From a virus (taxonomy: Duplodnaviria > Heunggongvirae > Uroviricota > Caudoviricetes): a stretch of 25,801 bases of DNA. The translations under genes were made by a program, and so were the position numbers. Below are positions 12,591-12,609 of the stretch, one piece after another. How positions within the stretch are numbered: position 1 is the stretch's first letter; each line of letters starts with the position of its first letter. The DNA lies in IMG/VR virus record IMGVR_UViG_2693429554_000019. One strand, written 5' to 3'. The notes under the pieces are model-generated. The model was not told the origin of the DNA, made no database searches, and saw only the letters and a list, made by a program, of their open reading frames with translations.

Positions 12591-12609
12591 GGCGTGGCGG
12601 GGATACGAG
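12591..12609. other. cos site (19-nt cohesive-end region of a P2/186-type phage)
   Basis: GGCGTGGCGGGGATACGAG. The first 13 nt match the cohesive-end core as I recall it for 186 (GGCGTGGCGGGGAAAGCAT) and P2 (GGCGAGGCGGGGAAAGCAC). Located between the accessory region and portal gene Q, where cos lies in a P2-type prophage. Confidence 0.6.

Follow-up and report, generated by a model that had tools for sequence, protein, structure and literature searches.

The window analysed here is a stretch of 25,801 nt of viral DNA in which the letters at 12591-12609 read GGCGTGGCGGGGATACGAG, and the question raised by this locus is whether these 19 letters belong to the cos site of a P2-type prophage, as a sequence-only reading had proposed from a likeness to the cohesive ends of phages 186 and P2, or whether the likeness has some other origin. 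On the grounds of homology, conservation, and gene order given below, we conclude with high confidence that 12466-12616 is the packaging site (cos) of a Fels-2/SEN8-type prophage in the P2 family, and that the 19-mer within it is the predicted cohesive end.

The reference records of both phages bore out the 19-nt cohesive ends to which that reading referred. The record of phage 186 (NC_001317) opens with GGCGTGGCGGGGAAAGCAT, annotated as 'cos; cohesive end' with the top strand cut at the 5' end and the bottom strand at the 3' end, and the record of P2 (NC_001895) has GGCGAGGCGGGGAAAGCAC at both termini, annotated as cosL and cosR; the start of the P4 record, which bears no cos annotation there, also aligns with the cut site in the window. 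In gap-free alignment, the window 19-mer was identical to 186 at 15 of 19 positions and to P2 and P4 at 14 of 19 each. The claim that the first 13 nt are shared with both phages held for the 186 reference record (13/13) and failed for P2 (12/13), in which position 5 is A where the window has T. At positions 14, 16, 17, and 19 the overhang departs from 186, so that the cut register strictly rests on conserved spacing and not on identity, and the spacing from GCGGGCA to CGCGCG in the window matches that of 186, P2, and P4 exactly. Alignment of the window to the circularised junctions of P2 and 186, a check suggested by the earlier reading, brought the cut sites into register without gaps and showed the right-end side to be clearly homologous.

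Closer relatives carry the 19-mer unchanged. Together with the following CGCGCG, it is identical in Fels-2, SopEphi, SEN8, Yersinia MLG42, E. coli 813R9, and Klebsiella ST13-OXA48phi12.1; the SEN8 record starts exactly at it under the label 'putative cos site', and the SEN8 genome announcement prints ggcgtggcggggatacgag as the cos site, assigned during annotation (PMC5427200). Publications also describe related cos variants in SEN1/PSP3, SEN4/5, and Smp131 (the last with one base different), all of them found from sequence and that of Smp131 explicitly by analogy with P2. An exact scan recovered the 19-mer from at least 120 IMG/VR contigs, nearly all of them P2-like, and a Q or A homologue lies near it in 112 of the 120 loci listed, a set that includes the window's own contig (UViG_2693429677_000020, 25,801 bp), of which the window is the full length. 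With an identical 19-mer both published (for SEN8) and widespread, the feature is already known and is an ordinary landmark of these phages.

Conservation is not confined to the 19-mer. Across 115 unique contexts, column conservation stood at 0.8-1.0 within 12466-12616 and at 0.3-0.45 immediately outside on both flanks, and pairwise homology with five relatives began at 12466-12468 and ended at 12615-12629. Because conservation is so sharply bounded at 12466 and 12616, the functional unit appears to be the 151-bp module, larger than 19 nt, which is made up of 125 bp on the virion right-end side followed by the 19-mer and CGCGCG(Y). When 12300-13150 was compared by blastn with 50,697 phage records, 83 of them matched, at 81-89% identity. 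All belonged to P2-like phages with hosts in Klebsiella, Salmonella, Escherichia, Yersinia, Erwinia, and Aeromonas; every match was confined to a short stretch within 12466-12644, and the flanks were unrelated. The core around the cut was conserved at 0.93-1.0 in nearly every column of the 115 contexts; in the window, 186, P2, and P4 alike, the 19 nt are flanked by AAAACC..AAAGCGGGCR and YGCGCG, and the window has the 55-bp-type core (TGCATGAAAACC..AAAGCGGGCA, 19 nt, CGCGCG) that is common to P2, 186, and P4. The 55-bp core is credited to Ziermann & Calendar 1990 in passages of PMC5694545, PMC9594776, and PMC2231350 that cite that work. An Rfam gathering scan over the entire window gave no match, promoter scans around cos yielded sites at chance level only, and an exact search for the cos-left junction among GTDB representative genomes returned 0 matches.

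Contexts that lack the distal block of the module were considered as possible P4-like satellites, a suggestion that was rejected, since homologues of the P4-type genes sid, delta, psu, and alpha were found at none of the 120 IMG/VR loci listed. In one metagenomic contig (IMGVR_UViG_3300011853_000021), two complete cos modules lie inverted relative to each other, at 3447-3465 on the minus strand and 6704-6722 on the plus strand, in the order P-Q-cos-DinI followed by DinI-cos-Q-P. The two modules share 93% identity, and the contig is either an assembly chimera or a pair of prophages joined head to head.

Several motifs recur at fixed distances from the cut. The distal repeats of the window are TGCATGA at 12467, TGCATGA at 12480, and GCATGA at 12491 (-124, -111, and -100/-101 from the cut), and the window has nine TGCATGA sites altogether, four of them inside 102 bp of the module. 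Motifs of the form (T)GCAT stand at -124, -111, -101, and -29 in the window, SEN8, 186, P2, and P4 alike. The proximal palindrome is conserved at 0.95-1.0, with the TGCAT at -29 common to 186, P2, and P4, and is followed directly by AAAACC and then by ..AAAGCGGGCA. P4 and P2 reportedly have essentially nothing but the cos region in common (PMC9122126; PMC9594776), and because P4 is nonetheless packaged by the P2 terminase, the retention of the GCAT positions in P4 is the strongest in-silico argument for a role in recognition; the phased GCAT repeats may thus be terminase binding sites. The hairpin of the module looks like a terminator facing rightward transcription. Its arms are conserved at 0.9-0.98 and its loop is variable, and in a covariation test its pairs were nearly invariant with almost no compensatory change, giving support neither way. 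An A-C mismatch at 12529/12534, seen in 1 of 116 sequences, and a second at 12522/12541, seen in 11 of 116, make the window hairpin weaker than the consensus.

The surroundings of the module (Table 1) appear to be those of a Fels-2/SEN8-type prophage in the P2 family (Peduoviridae) with a backbone closest to Klebsiella phage 4LV2017. About 76% of the window is about 96% identical to Klebsiella prophages such as 4LV2017, a likeness that hints at Klebsiella or a relative as the host. Cos (12591) falls between the A/DinI/accessory side and the portal gene Q of the Q-P operon, which is where the sequence-only reading had expected it in a P2-type prophage. The same element carries P2-type genes for both terminase subunits, with P 63% identical to P2 gpP over 590 aa and M 49% identical to P2 gpM and 186 R, and encodes O, N, and L after P as well. 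The window opens exactly at the integrase stop codon and closes at the tail-gene region before D/ogr, so that attL, attR, and the late prophage end are absent from it. The integrase ORF, at 402 aa, probably reaches too far in the 5' direction, the integrase of 4LV2017 being 326 aa long.

Table 1. Features of the cos locus and its surroundings, with positions in the 25,801-nt window
Feature	Position	Strand	Basis or remark
Integrase gene int	1-1209	-	Gene order
186-type CI	1449-2105	-	Gene order
A (replication)	5083-7497		Gene order
DinI	7778-8083		Gene order
Right-end variable (accessory) region	8095-12465		Without homology to five relatives between ~8094 and 12466
IS110-family element	~8173-9700; transposase 8380-9657		Limits from plasmid copies; Pfam and NCBIfam
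Accessory ORFs	9842-10306; 10485-11210; 11394-12203	+; -; -	Without family assignment
Predicted cos module, complete and conserved, 151 bp	12466-12616	+	Column conservation, 115 unique contexts; pairwise homology, five relatives
Distal array of three GCATGA repeats, candidate terminase recognition elements	12467-12496	+	Repeat finder
Hairpin and T-run (CCTGCCAGAACCGGCGGG CTTTT)	12523-12545	+	Terminator scan
Proximal palindrome TCATGCA-GG-TGCATGA	12553-12568	+	Perfect inverted repeat, -38 to -23 from cut
Predicted 19-nt cohesive end	12591-12609	+	Ungapped alignment to annotated cos ends of 186 and P2 and to start of P4 record
Left-end variable slot between cos and Q	12617-13127		Conservation drop after 12616; homology back at 13144-13198 inside Q
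97-aa acidic ORF	12789-13082	+	phrog_12676, function-unknown; start 198 bp from predicted left end
Bidirectional terminator hairpin, shared with Q operon	13085-13110		Terminator scan
Portal gene Q, 342 aa	13128-14156	-	Pfam Phage_portal; 62% identity to P2 gpQ
Terminase large subunit P, 588 aa, full length	14153-15919	-	Pfam Terminase_5, Terminase_6N, Terminase_6C
Terminase small subunit M, 216 aa, full length	17974-18624	+	Pfam Phage_term_smal

The ungapped alignment with 186, P2, and P4, the conserved flanks, the identity to the SEN8 cos site (PMC5427200), and the adjacent terminase genes all argue that 12591-12609 was rightly read as cos. After excision and replication of the prophage, if it is inducible, as we infer, the phage terminase (M as the small and P as the large subunit) would recognise the module, most likely through the phased right-end-side GCAT(GA) repeats (-124, -111, and -101), the palindrome at -38/-23, and AAAACC..AAAGCGGGCA. 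Staggered nicks are predicted between 12590 and 12591 on the top strand and between 12609 and 12610 on the bottom strand, in a register taken from homology, and the linear packaged genome would bear 19-nt 5' overhangs consisting of GGCGTGGCGGGGATACGAG and its complement. The 19-nt 5' overhangs, the covalently closed circle as substrate, and the 55-bp core are elements of this model drawn from passages of the P2/P4 literature (PMC2231350, PMC5694545). The packaged path would run from 12591 rightward via Q, P, the att junction, int, A, and the accessory block to 12590, which would place cos-ORF97-Q-P at the virion left end and A-DinI-IS110-accessory ORFs-cos at the right end. Contig ends were also inspected as evidence of termini: none of the 120 IMG/VR contigs listed begins or ends at the predicted cut, and the Cartapus and Midge records end elsewhere in or near the module.

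The alternative that survives best, which we nonetheless consider improbable, is that the module is a genuine cos site by descent that has since ceased to function, either in a defective prophage or with a cut register unlike that of 186 and P2. An IS110 element has inserted in this prophage, as decay might have it, but it sits in a dispensable variable region and hit no core gene, and each of Q, P, O, N, M, and L retains its full length and matches Pfam strongly. The module does depart from the consensus at a few positions, including the rare A-C mismatch in the hairpin, yet its proximal block (12553-12590) and the 19-mer agree with the consensus of the 115 contexts at every position. The tail and late-regulator genes lie beyond the end of the window, where a defect could go unseen, but the extrapolated genome of about 33.7 kb, if the absent part resembles Kp4860-7, is close to the 33.6 kb of P2. 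With respect to a shifted register, a literature search found no experimental termini or physical-end mapping for this exact 19-mer variant, the SEN8 site being annotation-based, and because the start of the SEN8 record was set by annotation it gives no independent support for the terminus; against such a shift, the GCGGGCA/CGCGCG spacing is exactly that of the three reference phages.

Far less probable again is a role of the block mainly outside packaging, as a small coding gene or as a terminator or regulatory region that merely lies near cos. A coding role might be read from the 'hypothetical protein' CDSs that are called wholly over the cos module in the records of Yersinia phage MLG42 (1519-1662, XAF37142.1) and Klebsiella ST13-OXA48phi12.1 (2518-2688, HYP82_gp19). 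No ORF spans the block consistently, however, since the plus-strand ORF of the window stops at 12496 and the minus-strand ORFs run into unconserved flanks, and the variable columns have no obvious three-base periodicity by eye; both CDSs are probably spurious gene calls over a non-coding module. A regulatory role could draw on the terminator-like hairpin and its T-run, but the hairpin shows no covariation and a terminator would account for about 25 bp, not 151. The architecture of the block is moreover common to P4, which reportedly has essentially only cos in common with P2 (PMC9122126), and this speaks against both forms of a non-packaging role.

Coincidental partial agreement of a G+C-rich 13-mer with the 186 and P2 ends, conceivable insofar as the contiguous match to 186 is just 13 bases long and G-rich runs are common in enterobacterial DNA, is scarcely credible and was excluded by the identity of the 19-mer in relatives, the conservation across 115 contexts, and the motif positions shared with P4, P2, and 186: the exact 13-mer occurs once in the 25.8-kb window (with up to two mismatches allowed, one further site was found, at 5043, against 0.72 expected by chance), and the match lies, at the canonical map position, in a 151-bp block homologous to sequences in about 90 phage records and at least 120 viral contigs.

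With the module read as the cos site of a P2-family prophage, the virion map is oriented and the accessory genes fall in two recognised cargo slots. Homology to the five relatives was lost at 8081-8094, regained at 12466-12629 only, and lost again until 13144-13198; because it brackets only the module, cos is a conserved island between two variable slots. The content between the gpA-side genes and gpQ next to cos is hypervariable, with flank conservation at background. The P2-like gpA-cos-gpQ hotspot is credited to Rousset et al. 2022 and Dodd & Egan 1996. This locus is a published P2-like accessory/defence hotspot (PMC9122126, Rousset et al. 2022; PMC13586616), and the cos-Q slot has long been noted for foreign genes, among them phiCTX ctx and the Ec67/Ec86 retrons (PMC5694545).

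On the right-end side, the proposal that the accessory block lies at the extreme right end of the virion genome, like P2 old and tin, agrees with the map: the block would form the last ~4.5 kb, and the two of its genes that lie nearest cos (10485-11210 and 11394-12203) point away from it in transcription, as old and tin do. The IS110 transposase matched Pfam DEDD_Tnp_IS110 and Transposase_20 and the NCBIfam entry 'IS110 family RNA-guided transposase', and copies of the element, 84-90% identical, are present on plasmids of Klebsiella, Rahnella, and Enterobacter. The element lies just after DinI, with about 200 bp of non-coding sequence upstream of its transposase. Two of the three remaining accessory ORFs match function-unknown PHROGs (phrog_19013 and phrog_31894), and the 269-aa ORF matches none. 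Neither these three ORFs nor the 97-aa ORF had a match in PADLOC, Pfam, or NCBIfam; no recognisable anti-phage defence was found in the cargo, nor is one required for membership of the hotspot.

On the left-end side, the 97-aa ORF would lie, as had been proposed, at the extreme left end before Q. It is found again 180-220 bp downstream of the 19-mer in four other prophages, with 99% amino acid identity in one of them (L107) and 68-70% in the others (L092, L040, and L068), and on account of this recurrence we regard it as a real gene typical of the cos-Q slot. A protein-guided search with it found only one distant relative, in a Steroidobacteraceae MAG, at 53% identity. The cos-Q cargo of relatives consists of a retron (4LV2017), an ATPase and RloB pair, or other ORFs; a gene is present between cos and Q in Fels-2, SopEphi, SEN8, 4LV2017, and phiCTX and absent there from P2 and 186. 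Minor corrections to the sequence-only reading concern the P2 match (12 of 13), the extent of cos as a module of about 150 bp, the IS110 element within the accessory block, and the standing of the cos-Q interval as a known cargo site.

The cos block is 84.5% identical to that of 4LV2017, compared with 94-96% for the flanking core genes, and the history of the module therefore differs from that of the backbone, in keeping with mosaicism at the hotspot. We raise as a tentative possibility, on balance doubtful, that the 151-bp module is a portable unit that has been swapped with adjacent cargo independently of the backbone, a reading suggested by the low identity to 4LV2017, by homology breakpoints that in many prophages fall a few bases from the two module edges, and by the 97-aa ORF that accompanies the left edge. 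If so, the GCAT array at -124/-111/-101/-29 would define the minimal unit kept by selection, cohesive-end-associated recombination would shuffle two independent cargo slots, and the cargo found here would be a candidate source of new defence or counter-defence genes. Independently of that suggestion, P2-like phages keep exclusion and defence genes flanking cos, and the four cargo ORFs are therefore reasonable candidates for anti-phage screening. The 151-bp fragment could also provide a precise signal for packaging cosmids or transducing particles when the helper is of the same phage type. The cos site itself adds nothing new on packaging, and the residual value of the locus lies in its uncharacterised cargo and in the clean definition of the module.

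Compared with 186 and P2, whose 19-nt 5' cohesive ends were sequenced experimentally where those of the window are predicted from sequence, the site has the same cohesive-end length and register, TGCATnAAAACC..AAAG(C/T)GGGC(A/G) upstream and (T/C)GCGCG downstream, GCAT at the same four positions, and the adjoining Q-P operon. It differs from them in that its overhang is of the ATACGAG type over the last six bases, in contrast to the AAAGCA(T/C) of 186 and P2, and in that the 97-aa ORF occupies the cos-Q interval, which in those phages holds only the terminator tQ/tW. P4 shares the core as well as the phased GCAT motifs at -124/-111/-101/-29, an argument for P2-type terminases reading the whole architecture of about 150 bp, and it likewise has a cargo hotspot directly adjoining cos (PMC9122126); its 19-mer, however, is of the P2 type and not that of the window.

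The cos site of lambda (cosQ-cosN-cosB) has its recognition array on one side of a staggered nick that leaves 5' cohesive ends (PMC4856287), and in principle the asymmetric terminase array predicted beside the staggered nicking site of the window is similar. The lambda overhang is, however, 12 nt long against 19 nt, with no sequence similarity between the sites, and cosB lies on the left-end side where the long conserved arm of the window lies on the right-end side; P2 and P4, unlike lambda, prefer covalently closed circles as substrate (PMC2231350). The cos site of the window is outside the lambda family.

The nearest likeness is to the Felsduovirus-type phages SEN8, Fels-2, and SopEphi, which share not only the 19-mer and CGCGCG but also a 151-bp module that is 84-89% identical and a cos site placed between DinI/accessory genes and Q with cargo on both sides. 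The flanking cargo is nevertheless wholly unlike theirs, consisting in the window of the IS110 element, three ORFs, and the 97-aa ORF, and the backbone of the window is nearer to 4LV2017 (Elveevirus, 94-96%) than to Felsduovirus. Measured against the gpA-cos-gpQ hotspot at large, the cargo of the window is distinct in lacking a PADLOC defence match and in having an insertion sequence among its occupants, but the arrangement is the same, with variable genes filling the space between A/DinI and Q and cos as the sole conserved island among them.
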